DNA from: Escherichia phage EC121
Sequence record: NC_054909.1
Strand: one strand, 5' to 3'
Length of the DNA stretch: 64,000 nucleotides
A program made the position numbers and the translations under genes. Shown piece after piece: positions 24,519-35,048 of this stretch; positions within the stretch are counted from its first letter, which is position 1; each line of letters begins with the position of its first letter. The notes below the pieces were generated by a model. It was not told where the DNA came from. It searched no databases and was given only the letters and a program-made list of their open reading frames with translations.

Positions 24519-26576
24519 CTACATTTTGAACTTTTTAGACATTCCGTTGATGTTAACCAAAGAAGCTAAGATTTGAGAAACTTCGTTTTCCTCTTCTTTT
24601 GATTCTTCTACAAGGAATTGATTAAATCCAGCCATTGGACGAACTTCACCAGTTTCCATTAGATGGTCGCCATCATATACTGATTCTTCTAATTGTTCAG
24701 AAGGAGGAACGATTGTGCCTTCAATTAGATACTTGTTATAAGCAGTTTCTTTCATCATGTACGTGCTTACTTTATTAATCTTCAACAAAATTCCACGCGG
24801 TAGAATAACTTCAGCTTCTGATGGAAATCCTGATAAATGACCTGGAACGATAACTTTAATTCGCTCAGCTCCTTTTATTACCATACCCACGCTAGTTTCA
24901 GCATCTTCATTAGCATATGCGGAATGACTACCCATATGCATTAAATCTTCGGCATCAACAGAACCTTCTCCTTCACCAGAAAATACTGCGCCGGAATCAT
25001 CTAGAGCCATATAGTTTTTACCATGCTCACCGAAGATATTTGGTTTAAGCGATGTTGATACGAAGTTCTTGAAATAGAACATTTTATTTTCAATATTATG
25101 GCGTAAAGTTTTAAAAGTAACTTCTTGTCCACGATAAAGCGTAGTTCCCGGAGGAAGAACTGATCCTTTGGCGAATGCAGAATCCAACGTCTCGATGTGT
25201 TTAATAGCTCGTTCCATGTATTCTTCACGGGTAGAATCTGGTTTACCCAAGAGGAACGAGTTCATTTCAACATATGAATCTGCACAATAATCTTCAATTA
25301 CATCAGACTCAGCCTGAGTCAGTCCTTTTGGAGTTACTTCGGTGCTTGCGTATTCATATGCCTGAGCAGCAGATTCATTAATCAATTTATAAATGCCATT
25401 CATGACAAATTGAATAATAGCTACCTTTTCGTCTGGTGTGGCTTTAGAACCTTTAACTAAATCATTGATAATTTTCTTAATAACATCAAAGCTATTAGAA
25501 ATATTAATGTCAGCGAGATCGCTCAAAATTTTATCGGTTTTATAATCAAAAAATTCTTTATTCTTTAAATATTCTTGAGAACCTTGATGTGTTATATCGC
25601 TCTGCAGTCTGATAGACGGATCACGTAAACGTGCATGGGCCAATGCAATATGATTTCGGAAGCTTTCTAGTTCATAATCGTTAGATTTAAAACGAGAAGC
25701 ACTTCTCATACCACCGATAGCTCCTTTGCCGAAGTTTGAACCAATCTGAATAACGCCAGAGTTCATTGGTCCTTCTGCTTTATATACAGGAACTTTAGAT
25801 TCAAACTCTTGATATTTCTTGGCAGCGAAGCTATCACCCTGAAGTGAAGCATCGACAGTAGAATATTGAGCTTGCGCTGCTAATCGACGACTAATTTTAG
25901 TTTTCTGAATAACAGCTTGATCCGTGCGCTTATCATTTTCTAAAGCAATAGAAGCAGCAACAGCAACAGCTTTAGGAACAGCATTACCTGTTTTAACATC
26001 TACATAAACATCACCAACCTTTGATTCAACTTTTGTGAATAACTCAGTTGAAATAGGAGGTACGCCTGGAATGTCTTCTAAATTGGCATTTTTACGGTAA
26101 ACCATAATATATGCATACTTTTTATCATAATCCCAGATTTCCTTTAAAAGAACATATCGACCTGCTCCTTTAGTACGTACTAAACGATCAGCAATAACTT
26201 GCATTTGACGAGCTGCGCCATTTGTTTTACTTTTTAGTACGCGGAATAGGCATGCGTCAATTTTATACTGTTTCATTGTTTGAAGAGCAGTATCAAAAAC
26301 CGCATTAATGACACCAATTGGATTTCCACCCAAGTTTTTAAGTTTAACTAATGATAGTTTCTCATTAACACCTATCATTACGATATGCATCATTTTATCG
26401 CCTGGCTTAACGTTTTTATTTGTATCACCACCAGAGGTGTATGTACAAAATCTAAATCCAGGAAGCACACTTTCTTCGCCGGCTTGAATAGCAAAAATTT
26501 GAGGTATTTTATGCTTAGGATTTAAGTTAACAACCGGCGCCGAAGCGCCGTCAAATAATTCTGTAATAAGTTCCAT
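24519..26576 (-). CDS. ADP-ribosyltransferase paralog, Alt-like (T4 alt.-2/alt.-1 position)
   Basis: 685-aa ORF; N-terminus MELITELFD shared with Alt; R / STS / E toxin-type ART motifs in the C-terminal half. Confidence 0.8.
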   Translation of the reverse strand: MELITELFDGASAPVVNLNPKHKIPQIFAIQAGEESVLPGFRFCTYTSGGDTNKNVKPGDKMMHIVMIGVNEKLSLVKLKNLGGNPIGVINAVFDTALQTMKQYKIDACLFRVLKSKTNGAARQMQVIADRLVRTKGAGRYVLLKEIWDYDKKYAYIMVYRKNANLEDIPGVPPISTELFTKVESKVGDVYVDVKTGNAVPKAVAVAASIALENDKRTDQAVIQKTKISRRLAAQAQYSTVDASLQGDSFAAKKYQEFESKVPVYKAEGPMNSGVIQIGSNFGKGAIGGMRSASRFKSNDYELESFRNHIALAHARLRDPSIRLQSDITHQGSQEYLKNKEFFDYKTDKILSDLADINISNSFDVIKKIINDLVKGSKATPDEKVAIIQFVMNGIYKLINESAAQAYEYASTEVTPKGLTQAESDVIEDYCADSYVEMNSFLLGKPDSTREEYMERAIKHIETLDSAFAKGSVLPPGTTLYRGQEVTFKTLRHNIENKMFYFKNFVSTSLKPNIFGEHGKNYMALDDSGAVFSGEGEGSVDAEDLMHMGSHSAYANEDAETSVGMVIKGAERIKVIVPGHLSGFPSEAEVILPRGILLKINKVSTYMMKETAYNKYLIEGTIVPPSEQLEESVYDGDHLMETGEVRPMAGFNQFLVEESKEEENEVSQILASLVNINGMSKKFKM

Positions 26577-26579
26577 GAT

Positions 26580-28673
26580 TTATCCTTGAACGAACTTGTA
26601 AGGCATGTTTGTAATATCTATGCAAGACGCAATAATTCCAAGAGATGATTCTACTTTTTGTTTAACATTTGATGAAACAAATGATGCAAAGTCAACTCTG
26701 TCTTCTATTTCAATATCACCTGTCATTGCAACTACTTCACCAGTTTCCATTAGACGGTCACCGTCATAAATTACTGATTCGGTGAGTTCTTCCGTAGTCA
26801 TAACTTCAGCTTGAATGAGTTTTGTATTATTAGATGTTGTTCCGTCATTATTAGAAGCATCAGTTATTTTATTAACTTTGACCATCAATCCGCGTGGTAG
26901 AATAACTTCAGCTTCTGTTGCTATTCCGAGACTTCCTGGATATACAACATTAACTTTATGAGCTCCATCAATTGCCCATCCTATTTGAACTTTAACGTAT
27001 TCAGGATTTTCTTTATACGCTCTTATTTCGTTTGGATTAATAGTTATTCCTTCTTCATTTTTATCAACTGTTAATTCATTACGAGCTTCTGGTTCTAAAA
27101 GACCAATACCAGCATGTGTAATTCCAAAACGTCCAAAAATGATAGGAGTTAAAGAAGTAGATACAAAATTTCTGAAATAGAATACTTTATTTTTAACTAG
27201 TGCTTCGTATATAGGAGCAGTCATACTTTGAGCACGATAAACTGTAATGCCTTCTGGTATACGGTCACCATTTTCAAAAGCTGAATCTAAGTTATTTATA
27301 GCAGATTCAATTTCTTTTTCACTCATTACATCATATCGTTCTGGATTGTAGCGTCCTAAAAGAAGATTATTGATGTCAGTATATCCTGAACCGCAATACT
27401 CTCTAATGCCGCGCTTTTGTGATGGAGTATATTTAGAACCATCACGGGCAATAGTAATATCAATCATTGGACCTGCACCAATTCCAGAAAAGCTATAAAT
27501 CATTCGTTTGAGGAATTTAGTTTTTGCTGCGTTCCAGGAATTTTTAGTTATTTCTTCCCAGACTTCATCTGGCTGTCCTTTACGGGTTTTATTATGTTTA
27601 TCAAGCCAATTATCTTTATATTCTTCAAAGAGTTGATTAACAGCTGCTGCGTATTTCTCCAAACATTTTATTGAAGTAGTTGGTTCATTTTTAATCGCAT
27701 TAAGAATTACATCTTTAATCTTTTCAGAAACTTCATTAACCTCACTTTTTGAAAAGAATTTATAGTCATAATGAAGTTCATCTGCAGTTCCTTCAGCAAT
27801 AATTTTTGCTGCCTTAGTTTTAGAAGCTAATGAATTAATTCCAAGCTTCATTTCTTCTGCTTCGGGAATTAAAGGAGCTGTAGCAGGTTTATTGAAATTA
27901 GCTGCGGTAGATTCATACTTCTGGAATAATTCACTTTCAAATCTAGAAGATTCTAATGATTGACTTTGTGCAATTGCTCTACGGGAAATTTTAACTTTAA
28001 CGATTACAGCTTGGTCAGAACGTTTATCGTTTTCTTGCGCAATAGATGCTGCAATTGCCTCATTTTTAGTTACTTGAGCTCCGGTATCTTTATTGATATA
28101 AACATCACCGACCTTCGATTCAACTTTAGTAAAGAGCTCGGTACTAATTTCTGGAACTCCTGGAATGTCTTCTAGTGATACATTTTTACGATGTATAAGA
28201 ATATATGCATACTTTTTATCGTAATCCCAGAGTTCCTTAAGAAGGACGTATCTGCCACCTGAACGACTACGGATAAGTCTATCAGCAATAACTTGAATTT
28301 GTCGAGCTTGGCCAGCAGTTTTAGACTTAAGAATACGAAGCATACAAGCATCAATTTTATATTGACGCATTGTTTGCATTGCAACAGTAAAAACTGAATT
28401 GATATAATTAATTGGGCTTGGACCAAGACCTTTTAATTTAGCAATTGAACCTTTAGCAGTTAATGTAAAAGGAACAATGTGCATCATTTTGTCGCCCATT
28501 TTTAAATCGCGATTAGTATCACCTCCAGATGTATATGTACATAAACGAAAGCCTGGTTGTTCAATTGCATCATCAACATGAACTGAAAAAATTTGTGGTA
28601 TTTTCTTCTTTGGATTTAAGTTTGTAATCGGAAGAGTAGTATCTTCGTCAAATAATTCTGTAATAAGTTCCAT
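26580..28673 (-). CDS. alt: ADP-ribosyltransferase Alt (virion-packaged, modifies host RNA polymerase)
   Basis: About 697 aa from the second ATG; ART motifs; adjacent to gene 30 as in T4; late promoter upstream. Confidence 0.75.
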   Translation of the reverse strand: MELITELFDEDTTLPITNLNPKKKIPQIFSVHVDDAIEQPGFRLCTYTSGGDTNRDLKMGDKMMHIVPFTLTAKGSIAKLKGLGPSPINYINSVFTVAMQTMRQYKIDACMLRILKSKTAGQARQIQVIADRLIRSRSGGRYVLLKELWDYDKKYAYILIHRKNVSLEDIPGVPEISTELFTKVESKVGDVYINKDTGAQVTKNEAIAASIAQENDKRSDQAVIVKVKISRRAIAQSQSLESSRFESELFQKYESTAANFNKPATAPLIPEAEEMKLGINSLASKTKAAKIIAEGTADELHYDYKFFSKSEVNEVSEKIKDVILNAIKNEPTTSIKCLEKYAAAVNQLFEEYKDNWLDKHNKTRKGQPDEVWEEITKNSWNAAKTKFLKRMIYSFSGIGAGPMIDITIARDGSKYTPSQKRGIREYCGSGYTDINNLLLGRYNPERYDVMSEKEIESAINNLDSAFENGDRIPEGITVYRAQSMTAPIYEALVKNKVFYFRNFVSTSLTPIIFGRFGITHAGIGLLEPEARNELTVDKNEEGITINPNEIRAYKENPEYVKVQIGWAIDGAHKVNVVYPGSLGIATEAEVILPRGLMVKVNKITDASNNDGTTSNNTKLIQAEVMTTEELTESVIYDGDRLMETGEVVAMTGDIEIEDRVDFASFVSSNVKQKVESSLGIIASCIDITNMPYKFVQG

Positions 28674-28696
28674 CATAGCCTCTCTAGTGTTTATTC

Positions 28697-28727: not shown

Positions 28728-28914
28728 AGTAATCTAGTGGTAAGAGAGTACGATATATTTCAAACTTTGGTCCTTTTTCATAGGCATCAAATGTTTCTGT
28801 AAATTTATTGTAAGCATATGCATCTACAAATTCGAGAATGACTTGTGATACAGAAGTAGAAACATCTCCACCTTCTTTTTGAGCAATGACAATTGTTTCT
28901 AAGTAAGCTTTCAT
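28726..28914 (-). CDS. Hypothetical 62-aa protein translationally coupled to gene 30
   Basis: ATG overlaps the gene 30 TGA (ATGA); I do not recall a named T4 gene here. Confidence 0.5.
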   Translation of the reverse strand: MKAYLETIVIAQKEGGDVSTSVSQVILEFVDAYAYNKFTETFDAYEKGPKFEIYRTLLPLDY

Positions 28915-30374
28915 AAACCAGTTACCTCATGAAAATCGCCAAATACATCCTCGAATGTATTAGCTTTAGTTTTATCTTCACGTAAACGAATCGCAATCGG
29001 AAGAAATAATTTAACGTAATCAGTGCGGCCATCAGATTTTAACCAACCGTTGCATTCGCACTCTAGAATTTTTCCAATATAATAATTTTGGTTTTCCATA
29101 ATGCGAGTACGGTCAAGTTCATGCGATTTTACACCAGCTTTATCTTTTAAGCCTGAACCAGCATTTACTTTAATTTTTCCACACTCTGACTCAAGAATAA
29201 ATCCACCCGCTTTAGTAGGGTCTTTACGGTGAGGATAAATTCCTACAATTTTTAAATCAACATCAATTACTTCTTTAAATTTATAAAGATTTTTTGAACG
29301 AGCATTTTCCCATAATCCATCGATATTTTTGAGAATAATACCTTCAAGACCTTGGTCAATATACTTTTTGTAAATTACCTTAGCTTCATCTAGGTTATTT
29401 ACTACCTGGTTTTCAATTAAAATTACTTTATCATATCCCGATGTCATTTGTTCTAGTTTAGAAAAACGTACATCATATTTCAAACGAAATGCTGGAAGAC
29501 CATATATTTCTACTAATGGAACATAATCCCAGACCTGAAACTTCATGCATTGAGCTTCTTTTTCTGAAATGGTTCCCTTTAAAGATTTATTAGCGATTCC
29601 ATTAGAAGTAGTACGTGATTCAGCTACTTCGGCGAATTCTTTAGCTTTACTAATTTCAGGATAAGCATCAAAAAGAAAATCTAGGCCTTCTGGTTCCTTT
29701 TCAACTTGCTCATGGTATACCAATTCGCCATCAATTAACACACCTTCTGGATGAATCTGGCGAGCTTCTGCAGTCATTTTGATTAACTCTTCCTTGAGAA
29801 GATCTAATCCTAGATATTCATTACCAGCTCGTGATAAAAGACGAACATCATCTAATTCATCACCTCTGACTTCAGCAAAGCACCGAGCTCCATCAGCTTT
29901 TAACTGGGCAAAAGCTGGAAATTTGATATTCTTATTAATGCCTTTTTCATCATAAGAACTTGCCAGCATTTGAGGTTGTTCAGGAATTAAACCTGGCCAA
30001 ACTTTGTTTGCAATAGATACTGATGCACCACATTCAAGGTCTCGCATCATCACCCGACGCAAAACTTCAACATCATCTTTTTTACCGTCAGCAATATATC
30101 CAGTTAATTCCTCAATTGCCGCATTTCCGGTCAATTTCCGAGTAGCTAACGTGAATTCAATGAAGTCAAGCATATCGGTAAGAGTTAACATTCCAAAACT
30201 CTGGGTAGAAATACCCGGTTTAGGCCATTTCTTGATATAATACTGCAACCCACGAGAATAAGTCAGACGATATACTCGTTTAAGCAATTCATTATCTTTA
30301 TTCTTTTCAAGAATTGCTTGCTTCTGCTTAGTTGAACCAATAGATGCTATTTCGTTCAGAATTTTAAGAATCAT
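28911..30374 (-). CDS. 30: ATP-dependent DNA ligase
   Basis: 487-aa ORF matching T4 DNA ligase, with a lysine adenylation motif. Confidence 0.95.
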   Translation of the reverse strand: MILKILNEIASIGSTKQKQAILEKNKDNELLKRVYRLTYSRGLQYYIKKWPKPGISTQSFGMLTLTDMLDFIEFTLATRKLTGNAAIEELTGYIADGKKDDVEVLRRVMMRDLECGASVSIANKVWPGLIPEQPQMLASSYDEKGINKNIKFPAFAQLKADGARCFAEVRGDELDDVRLLSRAGNEYLGLDLLKEELIKMTAEARQIHPEGVLIDGELVYHEQVEKEPEGLDFLFDAYPEISKAKEFAEVAESRTTSNGIANKSLKGTISEKEAQCMKFQVWDYVPLVEIYGLPAFRLKYDVRFSKLEQMTSGYDKVILIENQVVNNLDEAKVIYKKYIDQGLEGIILKNIDGLWENARSKNLYKFKEVIDVDLKIVGIYPHRKDPTKAGGFILESECGKIKVNAGSGLKDKAGVKSHELDRTRIMENQNYYIGKILECECNGWLKSDGRTDYVKLFLPIAIRLREDKTKANTFEDVFGDFHEVTGL

Positions 30375-30640
30375 TGTTCATCCTTTAGAGTTTGGTTTAC
30401 AGCTCTATTATAAATCAATTCATCATTAAGCTCAGTCAAAGACTTGTGGTACGTGGTTCTAACTTTATTTCCTTGCATCCAGTGCTTGACGTAAATGAAA
30501 CCTTGCTCTACACATTTTTTAAAAATTCGTTCGTCTTTTTGAGCTCGGAATTCTGGATTGCATCTAAAAAATTGATTTACGTGACCGTAATCACGTGTAG
30601 TATTACCTTCATTTTCATAAATAGTGTGAACAACAAACAT
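30371..30640 (-). CDS. Hypothetical protein (T4 30.1 position)
   Basis: 89-aa ORF; ATGA overlap with gene 30. Confidence 0.7.
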   Translation of the reverse strand: MFVVHTIYENEGNTTRDYGHVNQFFRCNPEFRAQKDERIFKKCVEQGFIYVKHWMQGNKVRTTYHKSLTELNDELIYNRAVNQTLKDEQ

Positions 30641-31479
30641 TAGAATGCTCCTTGGAAAATATTATCACCACTAGTAGGTCTATTATACAAATACTCTATG
30701 CCACCAGGTTTAATATAGTTCCATGTCTGAAACGGACGTGTCTGATATGGATGATATAGATGATTATAAGGATTAAATCCAGGAGTTCTCCAGGTAGTGT
30801 TCCAAGGAAAAGAATCGTTTTTAACCATCTTCTCGATTACATCTTTTATAGCTTTTTCACAATCAAAACTTTCTTTATTTTCCTTCGGTGAAAAAAGCTT
30901 ATTCTCTACATCATTCCATGTATAAACTCGCTGCGCAGTTTTTGGAATACTGTCACGCTCCCCTCGAGCCATCCAATAAACAGGAACATTTAATATTTCA
31001 CTCGCGTGATCGCAGTGGTGAGCGAGATCGTCAATATAACAAATTACGTTATATTTCTCTTTTGCCTTTTTGAACAACTCTTCTTTTGAAGAATCATGAC
31101 CACACATCAATACTTCTGAGAAGGCACCAGGAAAAAGAGCATTCAAATTAAATTGACGATTTAGCAGAGCGTCAATAGAATCACCCAATGCTGTAACAGC
31201 TACAAAATTATAATCTTCTTTTAATTTGTTAATTACACACAGGGCATCTTTATACGGAGACAAGTAACGAATAAAATCTGAACGATTATACTTTTCGATT
31301 AATTTAACACCAAGTTCTTCATCGCAATTAAAGAGCTTACCAGGAGAAATAAATTTTTCGTCCTGAATCATTTTTAAAATATGTTCCAACGGAAGATTAT
31401 ATTTTTGGGCAAAATAAGGAAGGCCCGATTGCCAGCTTAAACACACCCCGTCAATATCAGTCAAAATAGTAGGCTTCAT
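30640..31479 (-). CDS. HAD-superfamily hydrolase-like protein (T4 30.2 position)
   Basis: 279-aa ORF with N-terminal DxDGV motif (LTDIDGVCL). Confidence 0.7.
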   Translation of the reverse strand: MKPTILTDIDGVCLSWQSGLPYFAQKYNLPLEHILKMIQDEKFISPGKLFNCDEELGVKLIEKYNRSDFIRYLSPYKDALCVINKLKEDYNFVAVTALGDSIDALLNRQFNLNALFPGAFSEVLMCGHDSSKEELFKKAKEKYNVICYIDDLAHHCDHASEILNVPVYWMARGERDSIPKTAQRVYTWNDVENKLFSPKENKESFDCEKAIKDVIEKMVKNDSFPWNTTWRTPGFNPYNHLYHPYQTRPFQTWNYIKPGGIEYLYNRPTSGDNIFQGAF

Positions 31480-31940
31480 AGAGAGTCTCTTAATAGGTTT
31501 AACACATCAATAAATTCAGCTTCGGTTAGTATTGTATCATCTTTTGTTAGACCACTAGCCATGCTATGCTTCAAAACTTTTCCTTTCGAGGCTAGTAATG
31601 CATCACGAAAGCCCTTGTTTTGAATCGCTGCTTCAAAATATGCATTTGTGTACAACTCTTTCCACGCTGGTGAGTATCTTGAAAACGGAACTCCAAGCCA
31701 GAAGAGGGTCCCACGGTCCTGAGCTCTAGCATAAGACCTTCCAGCTTGTTGGGCGGCAAGCCCGGATAACCCAAATACACGACGTTGCTGTTCAACATTT
31801 TTCACCTTACATCCTTGGAGGAATCCTTCGAGACCTCCAAATTGAATGCCATCCATAACGAAAGGCCAATAGGCGAAATTACTTAATGCACATGATGGCC
31901 ACCTAAAATTACTTCTAATCTCTAACTCAGACATTTTCAA
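31476..31940 (-). CDS. YbiA/NADAR-like domain protein (T4 30.3 position)
   Basis: 154-aa ORF; motif LSNFAYWP..DG...GLEGFLQGCK resembles the YbiA/DUF1768 signature. Confidence 0.7.
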   Translation of the reverse strand: MKMSELEIRSNFRWPSCALSNFAYWPFVMDGIQFGGLEGFLQGCKVKNVEQQRRVFGLSGLAAQQAGRSYARAQDRGTLFWLGVPFSRYSPAWKELYTNAYFEAAIQNKGFRDALLASKGKVLKHSMASGLTKDDTILTEAEFIDVLNLLRDSL

Positions 31941-32133
31941 TGCTTATAATTTCAACATCAGCCCAATGACCATAGTTTGGTAGACGAAATTCAACTGGCC
32001 AGTCACTGCCTTTTTCTAATATAATAGACTTAACTTGCGGTTCTTCATGTTCATCAGTATATGGATTTTTATCTGTTACTTTATATGTGACCTTAATGTA
32101 CTGAATTCCAAAAATCTTATTAATTATATTCAT
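31927..32133 (-). CDS. Hypothetical protein (T4 30.3' position)
   Basis: 68-aa ORF named by synteny. Confidence 0.6.
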   Translation of the reverse strand: MNIINKIFGIQYIKVTYKVTDKNPYTDEHEEPQVKSIILEKGSDWPVEFRLPNYGHWADVEIISIENV

Positions 32134-32327
32134 ACTAATTCCTTTAATCCGTAAATAGGAGATAATTCATCACCCATACGAAGGTCTTCATTTCCATCTA
32201 CCCAGGAAACAATATAAGCCTCTTTTATTTGAACACCACTCCATTTAAATGGAGGTAGAACCTTAGAAATTAATCCAGGTATACCAACTCCCTTTAATTC
32301 AACAGTTTGACCTAAAAAGAATTTCAT
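32130..32327 (-). CDS. Hypothetical protein (T4 30.4 position)
   Basis: 65-aa ORF named by synteny. Confidence 0.6.
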   Translation of the reverse strand: MKFFLGQTVELKGVGIPGLISKVLPPFKWSGVQIKEAYIVSWVDGNEDLRMGDELSPIYGLKELV

Positions 32328-32614
32328 CAGAACCTCATCTGAAAGCCGTGTGATTTAACATTACCGCCGCCAATATCAGAAATATTAATTTCACGCGCAA
32401 TTGAAGGGTCAATGTCAATTTCACGATTAAGTTTAGCGATAGCTAAAGTATCACGCCCATTTACTGTACGGAATTCTAAAGGACAAACCACATCAACATA
32501 ATTTTTAATCGATTCACTGGTAGGTTGCAAATGAGCAGGAAGGTCTTTAGGCGCCTTAGAGAAAACAACTTCACAGAAATTTTTGCGGGTATCAAAATAA
32601 GTAGTCATAAACAT
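32327..32614 (-). CDS. Hypothetical protein (T4 30.5 position)
   Basis: Supplied ORF starts at TTG; trimmed to ATG at 32614, which has GAGGA 7 nt upstream. Confidence 0.6.
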   Translation of the reverse strand: MFMTTYFDTRKNFCEVVFSKAPKDLPAHLQPTSESIKNYVDVVCPLEFRTVNGRDTLAIAKLNREIDIDPSIAREINISDIGGGNVKSHGFQMRF

Positions 32615-32654
32615 AGTATTTTCCTCAGTAAGGGGCCGAAGCCCCTGTTTTATT

Positions 32655-33020
32655 TTAAATATCAAATTCGTTAAGAACTACATCAAAGATTGCTTCAAGA
32701 TGCTCAGGTTTAGCTCTGTTACTCAAAATATGACGAATCCAAGTTTTAACCAGAAGCTTACGATTAGCGCCATTCCAGCAAGGATGGGTCCCTAAATCGC
32801 GTTGACGAAAATCATCATCCAGAGCGATTTTGAAGTTTGAACCTTCCATTGTGATTGAAACCGTGATGCCATTTTCAAATCGCATATAAACGTAGTTAGG
32901 AGTCATATACTGTTCAATTTCGCATACTGATCCATTTTGATGTTTCCAAAGGCAAATAGTATCAATAGAACCTGCAATACCATTAGAAACATATTTACGT
33001 TCAAAGTTGATGTAGTTCAT
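32655..33020 (-). CDS. Hypothetical protein (T4 30.6 position)
   Basis: 121-aa ORF named by synteny. Confidence 0.65.
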   Translation of the reverse strand: MNYINFERKYVSNGIAGSIDTICLWKHQNGSVCEIEQYMTPNYVYMRFENGITVSITMEGSNFKIALDDDFRQRDLGTHPCWNGANRKLLVKTWIRHILSNRAKPEHLEAIFDVVLNEFDI

Positions 33021-33088
33021 TTTTATTCTCCGAGATGTTTAATTGCGGTACAGGTATATAATATCATATCCTGTACCAAAGTAAACAA

Positions 33089-33421
33089 TTATTTTACTAC
33101 TTTCCAGTGCTTCATGTCAAGTTTACCAACTTTTTTCATCTTCTCAATCAAACGTTCGGCACGTTGGCGAGCTGTAACATAATACCATTCGCCTAATTCA
33201 TTTTGTTCAATTTTTCCAACGATTACTGTATTCAATTCATAAATCCAACCAGTAAAGAAATTATGAACTTGAATTGTAAAGGTGAAATCTGTTCCCATAC
33301 CTTCTGTTGTTTCTACTTCAATAATATCACCTTCAATTGCCATTAAGAACCACATAGTTTCATCATATTTACCATTGAAGCATTTAGTCTTAACTGCAGC
33401 GTTCAGATTAATCGTTTTCAT
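33089..33421 (-). CDS. Hypothetical protein (T4 30.7 position)
   Basis: 110-aa ORF named by synteny. Confidence 0.65.
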   Translation of the reverse strand: MKTINLNAAVKTKCFNGKYDETMWFLMAIEGDIIEVETTEGMGTDFTFTIQVHNFFTGWIYELNTVIVGKIEQNELGEWYYVTARQRAERLIEKMKKVGKLDMKHWKVVK

Positions 33422-33506
33422 TTTATTCTCCTTTGTTTGTGTAAGATAATACTATCACAAAGGAACCATACTGTAAACAACTTTATGCAATCTTTGGAAA
33501 ATAAAA

Positions 33507-33531
33507 AAGGACTCCCGAAGGAGTCCTTAAC
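33507..33531 (-). terminator. Rho-independent terminator (minus strand)
   Basis: 9-bp stem AAGGACTCC-CGAA-GGAGTCCTT followed on the minus strand by UUUUUUAUUUUCC. Confidence 0.65.
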
Positions 33532-33750
33532 TTATGCTTTCTGCTTACCAAAACGAGAAGCATCATCTCGAAGAACCGCACGTGCTCGGCGCATGATCTT
33601 CTCAACAGTTTGATTGATACGAGAGTTCGACCCACGCTTGTAGCCAGCGCGTTTAGAATCACCAACTTTCTTTTCAACTGCTTTCTTTGCTTTAGCTTGT
33701 TTTGCCATTATAAATTCTCTTTTAAATGAAAATGCAGGACTTATTGGCAT
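33532..33750 (-). CDS. Small basic protein (T4 30.8/30.9 position); start ambiguous between 33750 and 33708
   Basis: K/R-rich ORF; two in-frame ATGs, neither with a strong Shine-Dalgarno. Confidence 0.5.
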   Translation of the reverse strand: MPISPAFSFKREFIMAKQAKAKKAVEKKVGDSKRAGYKRGSNSRINQTVEKIMRRARAVLRDDASRFGKQKA

Positions 33751-33951
33751 TGCCTGCGCAAGCCCTCAAGGGGAACATAGGTTTTGGATATTTAACGACA
33801 GGATAACCATAAACCCGTCATCATTCACATTCAAGAGGTACACCATAAAACTGCCGGGGTCTTAAAACTATAATGATTCGCAAATCATTAATCAGACAGT
33901 TCGATGGCTCCTCGATTTTAGCTCACACTAAGGCAGTGAATCTCCAATAAA

Positions 33952-34200
33952 TTACTTCAGTGTTACCACAAAGTGACGAACTGCTTTTCGTGCAGCAGAA
34001 GCCAGAGGCTTAGCATACTTAAGTTCATCTTTTTCCTGAAGCTCAGCAGCTAATGCAGTTTGAGCAGGATTCAGATGTTTGAAATAACGCAGGATTTCAA
34101 GAGCTTCGGCTTCAACATCAATAGATGCGCCATAGTTTTCGTGACCATTATTCCATGCGTTTCGTTGCAGTTCAAGAGCGTGTTGTAATTGTTTAATCAT
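33952..34200 (-). CDS. rIII: rIII lysis-inhibition accessory protein
   Basis: 82-aa ORF immediately upstream of gene 31, as in T4. Confidence 0.75.
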   Translation of the reverse strand: MIKQLQHALELQRNAWNNGHENYGASIDVEAEALEILRYFKHLNPAQTALAAELQEKDELKYAKPLASAARKAVRHFVVTLK

Positions 34201-34347
34201 TTAAAAATTCTCGTTAGAGATTAAAACTCGGTAGTCACGTTCTTCTGAATTTCATCTTCTTTCGACAGATCTCTCAGTTGTAGACTACCACATAGAATTG
34301 TTCGGTTAACTTATTATTCCGACACCCAATTCATATTATTATTTATA

Positions 34348-34683
34348 TCACTTATAAAGACACGGAATAGCTTTATAGTGACAAGTAACGAATTTTTGTT
34401 TAATTTCTTTTGGCTGCTTAAGACCCAGAGCTACAAAAGGATGCGGAACATTTCGAATTTGACCAACTGGAAGAGAAGTCAAATCACCAACTTCGCAGAA
34501 ACCTTCAGGAACATCAGGACCAACAGAGTGAATTACACACAGTTCAGGAACTTCACCTTGAACACGTTTACCGATAATAAGTCCTGATTCTGTAACTTCT
34601 TCATCACCGGCTTGTGCAGGTTCAGAAACTAAAATAACATATTCACCGACAGCACGAATTGGTAACTGTTGTACTTCAGACAT
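34348..34683 (-). CDS. 31: Co-chaperonin gp31 (GroES analogue for capsid folding)
   Basis: 111-aa ORF matching T4 gp31. Confidence 0.92.
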
Positions 34684-34739
34684 CGTTTTTCCTTTTTGTT
34701 AATAGATGAATTAATAATAACAAATAATTCTTAAAGCAT

Positions 34740-35048
34740 TTATTTACCAATAAATTGGAGTAAATGCTCAACTTTCATACCATTAACAGAAATCAATTTG
34801 TCAATAGAAAAACCTCGCCATGCACCAAGTTCAACATCAAATACTGGAATCATGTCAGTAGATTCTTTCCGAGTCGATTCAGTCAATTTACCAGTTTGCA
34901 TGGTTGGCATAAAGTCTGCGTCACGAGTACCTTTCATAGTACGAATAGTACCATCAGACTTTTCAAAAACTACGTTTGAAACACCCATGGACAGTTTAGT
35001 TTTCAAAATTTCACGAATTGCTACTTTTTGTTCAGTCGTCAGTTTCAT
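34740..35048 (-). CDS. Hypothetical protein (T4 31.1 position)
   Basis: 102-aa ORF named by synteny. Confidence 0.7.
   Translation of the reverse strand: MKLTTEQKVAIREILKTKLSMGVSNVVFEKSDGTIRTMKGTRDADFMPTMQTGKLTESTRKESTDMIPVFDVELGAWRGFSIDKLISVNGMKVEHLLQFIGK

Follow-up and report, generated by a model that had tools for sequence, protein, structure and literature searches.

Escherichia phage EC121 is a T4-like phage, a Tequatrovirus. The window analysed here is a stretch of 64,000 nucleotides from its sequence record, NC_054909.1, and all positions are counted from the first letter of that window. The subject is a short gene on the minus strand, the counterpart of T4 gene 30.3. In T4 this gene has been renamed adfN, and the DarTG1 resistance of T-even phages has been mapped there (Johannesman et al., Nat Commun 2025, PMC11825919).

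The gene was noticed in a sequence-only reading of the window, which saw in its product the peptide CALSNFAYWPFVMDGIQFGGLEGFLQGCK and likened it to E. coli YbiA. From this motif it proposed an enzyme of the NADAR family that reverses ADP-ribosylation of nucleic acids, either as counter-defence against DarT-type toxins or for nucleotide-damage repair. The peptide is present exactly in the translation.

Gene model and orthology

The best match to the 2.1 kb around the gene is Shigella phage SH7, at 98% DNA identity. Of the 693 phage records that match the same 2.1 kb, most are Tequatrovirus of Escherichia and Shigella. The equivalent coding sequence (CDS) in T4 and SH7 is gene 30.3, which measures 459 nucleotides, encodes 152 amino acids (aa), and sits between 30.4 and 30.2, with 30.1 and the DNA ligase gene 30 further downstream.

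The open reading frame (ORF) listing of the window gives a minus-strand frame at 31476..31940, with a TTG start and 154 aa. These coordinates, which the earlier reading used, are right for the maximal ORF, but its start and length probably have to be shortened. The ATG at 31934, which comes six bases after the TTG at 31940, is the more likely start. Three things speak for it: the T4 and SH7 annotations begin there, it is located in ATGTCTGA, where it overlaps the stop of the upstream gene 30.4, and it alone fits the published residue numbers E36 and K43 (PMC11825919). The adfN CDS is therefore placed at 31476..31934 (minus strand, stop included, 152 aa), based on the ORF, the identity to T4, the Pfam family PF08010 and the annotation of T4 and SH7. 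The two extra codons of the maximal ORF, TTG AAA at 31935..31940 (minus strand), are probably untranslated, given the T4 and SH7 starts and the E36/K43 numbering.

Read from the ATG, the window protein is identical to T4 gp30.3 (NP_049816) at 148 of 152 residues (97%), over the full length and without gaps. The four substitutions, with the window residue first and that of T4 second, are Y22Q, V53I, L114Q and M125I. None is at a conserved position. On the nucleotide level, 11 of the 16 differences from T4 are synonymous in the adfN frame, a pattern that purifying selection would leave. The C-terminal helix (residues 138-151; 31482..31523, minus strand) is intact: it is modelled at a high predicted local distance difference test score (pLDDT) and aligns to the end of T4 gp30.3. 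This is the helix that the allele of phage RB69 is without. Judged by its sequence, the gene is an orthologue of T4 adfN and an intact copy of it.

T4 also has an annotated internal ORF, 30.3', which lies out of frame inside adfN. Its counterpart in the window is found at 31592..31798 (minus strand), and ends 7 codons earlier than in T4. There are 8 nucleotide differences from T4 within 30.3'. Seven of these alter its amino acids, one of them by creating the stop, and six of the eight are silent in the adfN frame. This pattern argues against 30.3' as a second product; only the adfN frame looks selected, and 30.3' is probably no real gene.

By tblastn, 1,509 phage records contain the gene, and nearly all of these label it 'hypothetical protein'. 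Since functional papers appeared in 2024 and 2025, annotation trails the literature here. Some of the matched records cover residues 1-144 only; these may be variant or truncated alleles like that of RB69.

NADAR motif, active site and fold

In hmmscan, the window protein matches PF08010 (Phage_30_3) with 232 bits (E 2e-69; gathering cut-off 36), over positions 1-138 of the 138 in the profile. A search of 5.8 billion proteins yields 114 relatives, all of which carry PF08010, and several bear the JGI label YbiA/DUF1768 family. Conservation was assessed on an alignment of 59 full-length gp30.3 relatives. Across these 59, the residues A16, L17, S18, N19, F20, F25, E36, G37, F38, Q40 and H123 are invariant.

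The motif runs from C15 to K43 (31806..31892, minus strand), and makes up the N-terminal portion of the NADAR active site. It aligns to YbiA residues 27-55 in hmmsearch, hhalign and BLASTP alike. The YbiA signature that had been quoted for comparison is real, as E. coli K-12 YbiA has GDFSNFAAWPIKVDGKTWPTSEHYFQAQKF. In a single pairwise BLASTP comparison, the window protein and YbiA align with E = 7e-6, spanning exactly the motif. The family profile aligns to YbiA in hhalign with 93.3% probability, E 2.7e-7 and 90 aligned columns. Its best PDB sequence match is 2b3w, again E. coli YbiA, with a marginal E of 0.012 over the same motif. On these alignments, the resemblance of the motif to YbiA is more than chance.

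The conserved glutamate and lysine of NADARs (E43 and K50 in PnNADAR, E88 and K95 in E. coli C7) are present as E36 and K43. The codon of Glu36, the catalytic glutamate, is at 31827..31829 (minus strand). This residue, the E of the LEGF stretch, is invariant in the alignment and pairs with YbiA E48, so the catalytic glutamate does align as had been supposed. The codon of Lys43, the catalytic lysine, is at 31806..31808 (minus strand); the residue is at least 90% conserved and aligned with YbiA K55. The mutations E36A and K43A both weaken AdfN-T4 (PMC11825919).

The third residue of interest is His123 (codon at 31566..31568, minus strand), which is invariant and falls in a predicted strand, 120-123. 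The hhalign alignment stops one position earlier, at K122 opposite YbiA V124; extended without a gap, it puts H123 opposite YbiA E125. The residue in this last strand defines NADAR subfamilies: it is Glu in YbiA, Asp in DarG1-type enzymes and His in phage gp30.3 NADARs (PMC11125620, PMC11543638). Both papers credit sequence analysis by de Souza and Aravind with placing gp30.3 in a His-type phage NADAR branch. 'YbiA-like' was thus right about the NADAR relationship, but not about the subfamily, as His123 replaces the Glu that defines it.

The predicted structure shows the NADAR fold unambiguously. In the model, an alpha-helical core lies between two small beta sheets, and superposes on solved NADARs. 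The window protein is predicted to consist of the core only, with the first strand beginning at residue 3. In a 2026 study, too, the phage NADAR is described as having the core domain only.

Function and rival readings

AdfN stands for anti-DarT factor NADAR, and is the main anti-DarTG1 factor of T-even phages. When adfN is deleted, T4 and T2 no longer plaque on DarTG1 hosts, and the resistance of both was shown by deletion and complementation. On hosts without DarTG1, T4 lacking adfN plaques normally. RB69, whose frameshifted 30.3 is without the last 15 residues, is sensitive to DarTG1, and is rescued by expression of adfN. Rescue is weakened by E36A, K43A and C-terminal truncation. Purified AdfN-T4 strips ADP-ribose from DarT1-modified DNA; the E36A protein does not (all PMC11825919).

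Earlier, NADARs had been found to hydrolyse guanine-ADP-ribose made by DarT1, and structures were solved (Schuller et al., Mol Cell 2023, PMC11543638). A 2024 study of the purified T4 protein found that it hydrolyses ADP-ribose on guanine, not on thymine, in DNA (PMC11125620). The methods of that study name the construct as 'E. coli T4 phage NADAR (gp30.3; residues: 1-208)', whereas T4 gp30.3 has 152 residues. The 2026 study reports that the T4 NADAR also acts on ADP-ribosylated guanine in RNA in vitro; its list of enzymes that reverse cytidine ADP-ribosylation does not include the phage NADAR.

Reversal of guanine ADP-ribosylation as counter-defence against DarT, as proposed from the motif, is therefore the published function of the 97%-identical T4 protein (PMC11825919, PMC11125620), for which enzyme activity, necessity and sufficiency against DarTG1 are all on record. 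The proposal is supported, and already established by published work. The finding is in itself already known: the gene is nearly identical to its T4 orthologue, whose product has been characterised by experiment as a counter-defence enzyme. The nucleotide-damage repair role that had been offered alongside, with ligase and 30.2, fared less well: nothing speaks for it beyond synteny within T4-like phages.

Established here are orthology, the fold, catalytic residues that are conserved and align, and an intact C-terminus. That this allele acts like T4 AdfN is what we infer from them. The gene would then encode a minimal, core-only ADP-ribosylglycohydrolase of the NADAR fold. DarT1 of a host DarTG1 system would ADP-ribosylate guanines in the phage DNA and so block replication. 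AdfN would cut the N-glycosidic bond that links ADP-ribose to guanine; the base would thereby be restored and the ADP-ribose freed, and replication would continue. Glu36 and Lys43 would hold the distal ribose and the phosphates, as in solved NADARs. At 97% identity, this phage presumably has a functional AdfN and, with its allele intact, should be DarTG1-resistant. As a whole, an AdfN orthologue that reverses guanine ADP-ribosylation by DarT1 is very likely what the window holds. With such an orphan version of a bacterial antitoxin enzyme, the phage would mend its own DNA once an ADP-ribosylating defence toxin has attacked it.

Several points weigh against this. The window protein gives no match to the NADAR family PF08719 at E <= 1 in hmmscan, and none in NCBIfam and PADLOC scans; phmmer against PDB sequences returned nothing useful. 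The profile search that had been suggested as a check thus comes out mixed, with PF08010 as the direct match, the hhalign result for YbiA, and PF08719 matches in 12 of the 59 full-length relatives (best E 1.5e-7). The direct PF08719 match is absent because Pfam treats the phage branch as a family of its own, and the link to PF08719 is transitive, through these 12 relatives. Membership in the NADARs therefore stands on remote homology, fold evidence and the literature. In the published system, E36A and K43A cause only a partial loss of function in vivo (PMC11825919). The T4 NADAR does not protect uninfected E. coli from DarT1 (PMC11125620), and AdfN-T4 barely rescues T5 or Bas25. Something specific to T-even infection is therefore needed. 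The part given to His123, as a replacement for the third catalytic carboxylate, is putative. Finally, the window allele itself is known from its sequence.

With AdfN-T4 the window protein shares not only its sequence but also its position between 30.4 and 30.2, upstream of ligase, as well as E36, K43, H123 and the C-terminal helix; it differs by the four substitutions. There is no darT gene beside adfN, and the flanking genes 30.4, 30.2, 30.1 and ligase hold no DarT or other ADP-ribosyltransferase (ART) domain. The window NADAR is therefore an orphan, unlike DarG1 (E. coli C7, G. lovleyi 8bat). DarG1 has 219 aa and an N-terminal beta1-beta2-alpha1 extension that bears the basic DNA groove (PMC11543638); the window protein, at 152 aa, is without this extension. 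The catalytic Asp in the last strand of DarG1 corresponds to His123, and AdfN-T4 cannot stand in for DarG1 in uninfected cells.

E. coli YbiA (2b3w, PF08719) has Glu125 where the window protein has His. It belongs to a LexA-controlled host operon, and gives no protection against DarT1 in cells (PMC11125620). Closer in role are AdfN-Bas32 (from a T5-like phage) and AdfN-Bas60 (Vequintavirinae), which are also orphan phage NADARs, guanine-specific and active against DarTG1. These were acquired independently, from other NADAR branches. They also work in uninfected cells and in unrelated phages, whereas the T4 type needs T-even infection (PMC11825919).

It is conceivable that reversal of DarT1 is one activity among several, and that the main job of the enzyme is to undo or limit ADP-ribosylation by the phage's own ARTs or by RNA-targeting host toxins. 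Two full-length Alt-type ART genes (PF03496) do lie 3-7 kb downstream of adfN in the same orientation, at 24519..26576 (685 aa) and 26580..28676 (698 aa), both on the minus strand and downstream of the ligase gene. The hydrolysis of RNA guanine-ADP-ribose by the T4 NADAR in vitro fits as well. So does the finding that the sampled family members outside Straboviridae, in annotated records or on long contigs, adjoin tRNA or RNA-repair-type genes in three out of three cases. However, the deletion phenotype of adfN is specific to DarTG1, with normal plaques on DarTG1-free hosts (PMC11825919). Alt is known as a protein ART, according to a note in the T4 annotation, and its proximity to adfN is ordinary T4 synteny. 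The RNA-gene neighbourhoods amount to three cases, in tRNA-rich early regions of phages. On balance this alternative is quite improbable.

Lower still stands a metabolic role of the YbiA type, in which the protein would be an N-glycosidase of small molecules, such as riboflavin-pathway intermediates or soluble ADP-ribose derivatives, and not of DNA. The resemblance to YbiA comes with His in place of the YbiA-defining Glu, and the published phylogeny puts phage gp30.3 NADARs nearest to DarG1 antitoxins. In addition, the 97%-identical T4 protein acts directly on ADP-ribosylated DNA, and its genetics are DarTG1-specific. This role is largely refuted by the published assays, and can be considered very unlikely.

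The chance that the allele is decayed like that of RB69, which is frameshifted and DarTG1-sensitive, or that the motif match is coincidental, is negligible: some phage records do match residues 1-144 only, but in the window the ORF is full length with the helix and all invariant residues in place, most differences from T4 are synonymous, and the profile and fold statistics exclude chance.

Neighbouring genes

The genes around adfN are all on the minus strand. Upstream is gene 30.4 (31927..32133, 68 aa), identified by its ORF, phrog_2042 and the T4 annotation; its stop overlaps the adfN start. Downstream is gene 30.2 (30640..31479), whose ATG overlaps the adfN stop as ATGA. Given these overlaps, 30.4, 30.3, 30.2, 30.1 and 30 are closely packed in one run, probably with coupled translation. 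Gene 30, for an ATP-dependent DNA ligase of 487 aa, is at 28911..30374; 'DNA ligase' annotations cover this ORF in more than 10 close relatives, and its size and position agree with those in T4. The earlier reading named this neighbour correctly.

It also called 30.2 a HAD-type hydrolase, and this agrees with conservation, profile, AlphaFold2 model and Foldseek search, which together indicate a deoxyribonucleotidase-like protein of the HAD fold. Among 50 relatives of gp30.2, D8, D10, G11 and K132 do not vary, and conservation is at least 90% at T96, D150 and D151. These residues are the HAD motifs I-IV (DxD, S/T, K, DD). The best PDB match of the gp30.2 profile is 2jao, a 5'(3')-deoxyribonucleotidase, with a marginal E of 0.02; in hmmscan, no Pfam model, HAD included, matches gp30.2 directly. 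The AlphaFold2 model has pLDDT above 90 for residues 1-200, followed by a C-terminal tail of about 80 residues that is low-confidence or disordered and is missing in many relatives. The top Foldseek matches are all HAD hydrolases (E ~2e-8). The closest superpositions, those with the lowest root-mean-square deviation (4.2-4.8 A), are mostly cytosolic or mitochondrial 5'(3')-deoxyribonucleotidases. Most records call gp30.2 hypothetical.

The order 30.3, 30.2, ligase is conserved in four Straboviridae genera, and is seen in T4, RB43, Aeh1 and Morganella phage MP1. Around the homologues examined outside Straboviridae the pairing was not found, so 30.3-30.2 as a mobile two-gene module was rejected, and the linkage is best described as T4-type synteny. 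Near the gp30.3 homologues of phiM7, RSP15 and four metagenomic phage contigs there is no relative of gp30.2, and in phiM7 and RSP15 no ligase either. On one of these contigs, of 308 kb, the homologue has downstream of it a 254-aa gene that is no relative of gp30.2 (BLASTP E 3.5) and has no PHROG. The neighbours on the other three contigs align to the gp30.2 profile with hhalign probabilities of 5%, 4% and 0.3%, and one of them has a weak Pfam match to T5 dNMPase.

The T-even factor that AdfN needs could in principle be gp30.2, which might, for instance, bring AdfN to replicating DNA or act on a product of the reaction. This is a long shot. The homologues that lack a gp30.2 relative nearby argue against it, as do RB43 and Aeh1, which have extra genes between 30.3 and 30.2. 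The published data fit any of many T-even core proteins equally well.

The two tandem Alt-type ARTs are full length and share 41% identity. In T4 there is a single alt gene, and of an old duplication only the remnants alt.-1 and alt.-2 are left (T4 annotation). In this phage, two ADP-ribose writers sit 3-7 kb from adfN, an ADP-ribose eraser.

In other phages, the gp30.3-family gene has different company. In Sinorhizobium phage phiM7 (L010 4007..4462) it adjoins a tRNA nucleotidyltransferase gene, in Ralstonia phage RSP15 (L011 3995..4513) a tRNA cluster with an 'RNA-binding protein', and on the 308-kb metagenomic contig (L003 6001..6468) a Thg1 and a Nudix gene. These three neighbourhoods may hint at RNA substrates, or be coincidence. 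The phiM7 homologue (NC_041929.1 143196..143651), ~40% identical, is labelled 'putative homing endonuclease', and looks mis-annotated.

Scans of 28800..34800 for transcription signals found no excess over shuffled sequence, with 22 promoter sites against 20.7 and 4 terminator sites against 3.1. A strong terminator-like hairpin is present at 33507..33528 (minus strand), with a 9-bp stem AAGGACTCC/GGAGTCCTT, a TTCG loop and then a T run. It lies 4 bases past the stop of a 72-aa ORF (33532..33750), and a transcription unit upstream of the 30.x block may end here.
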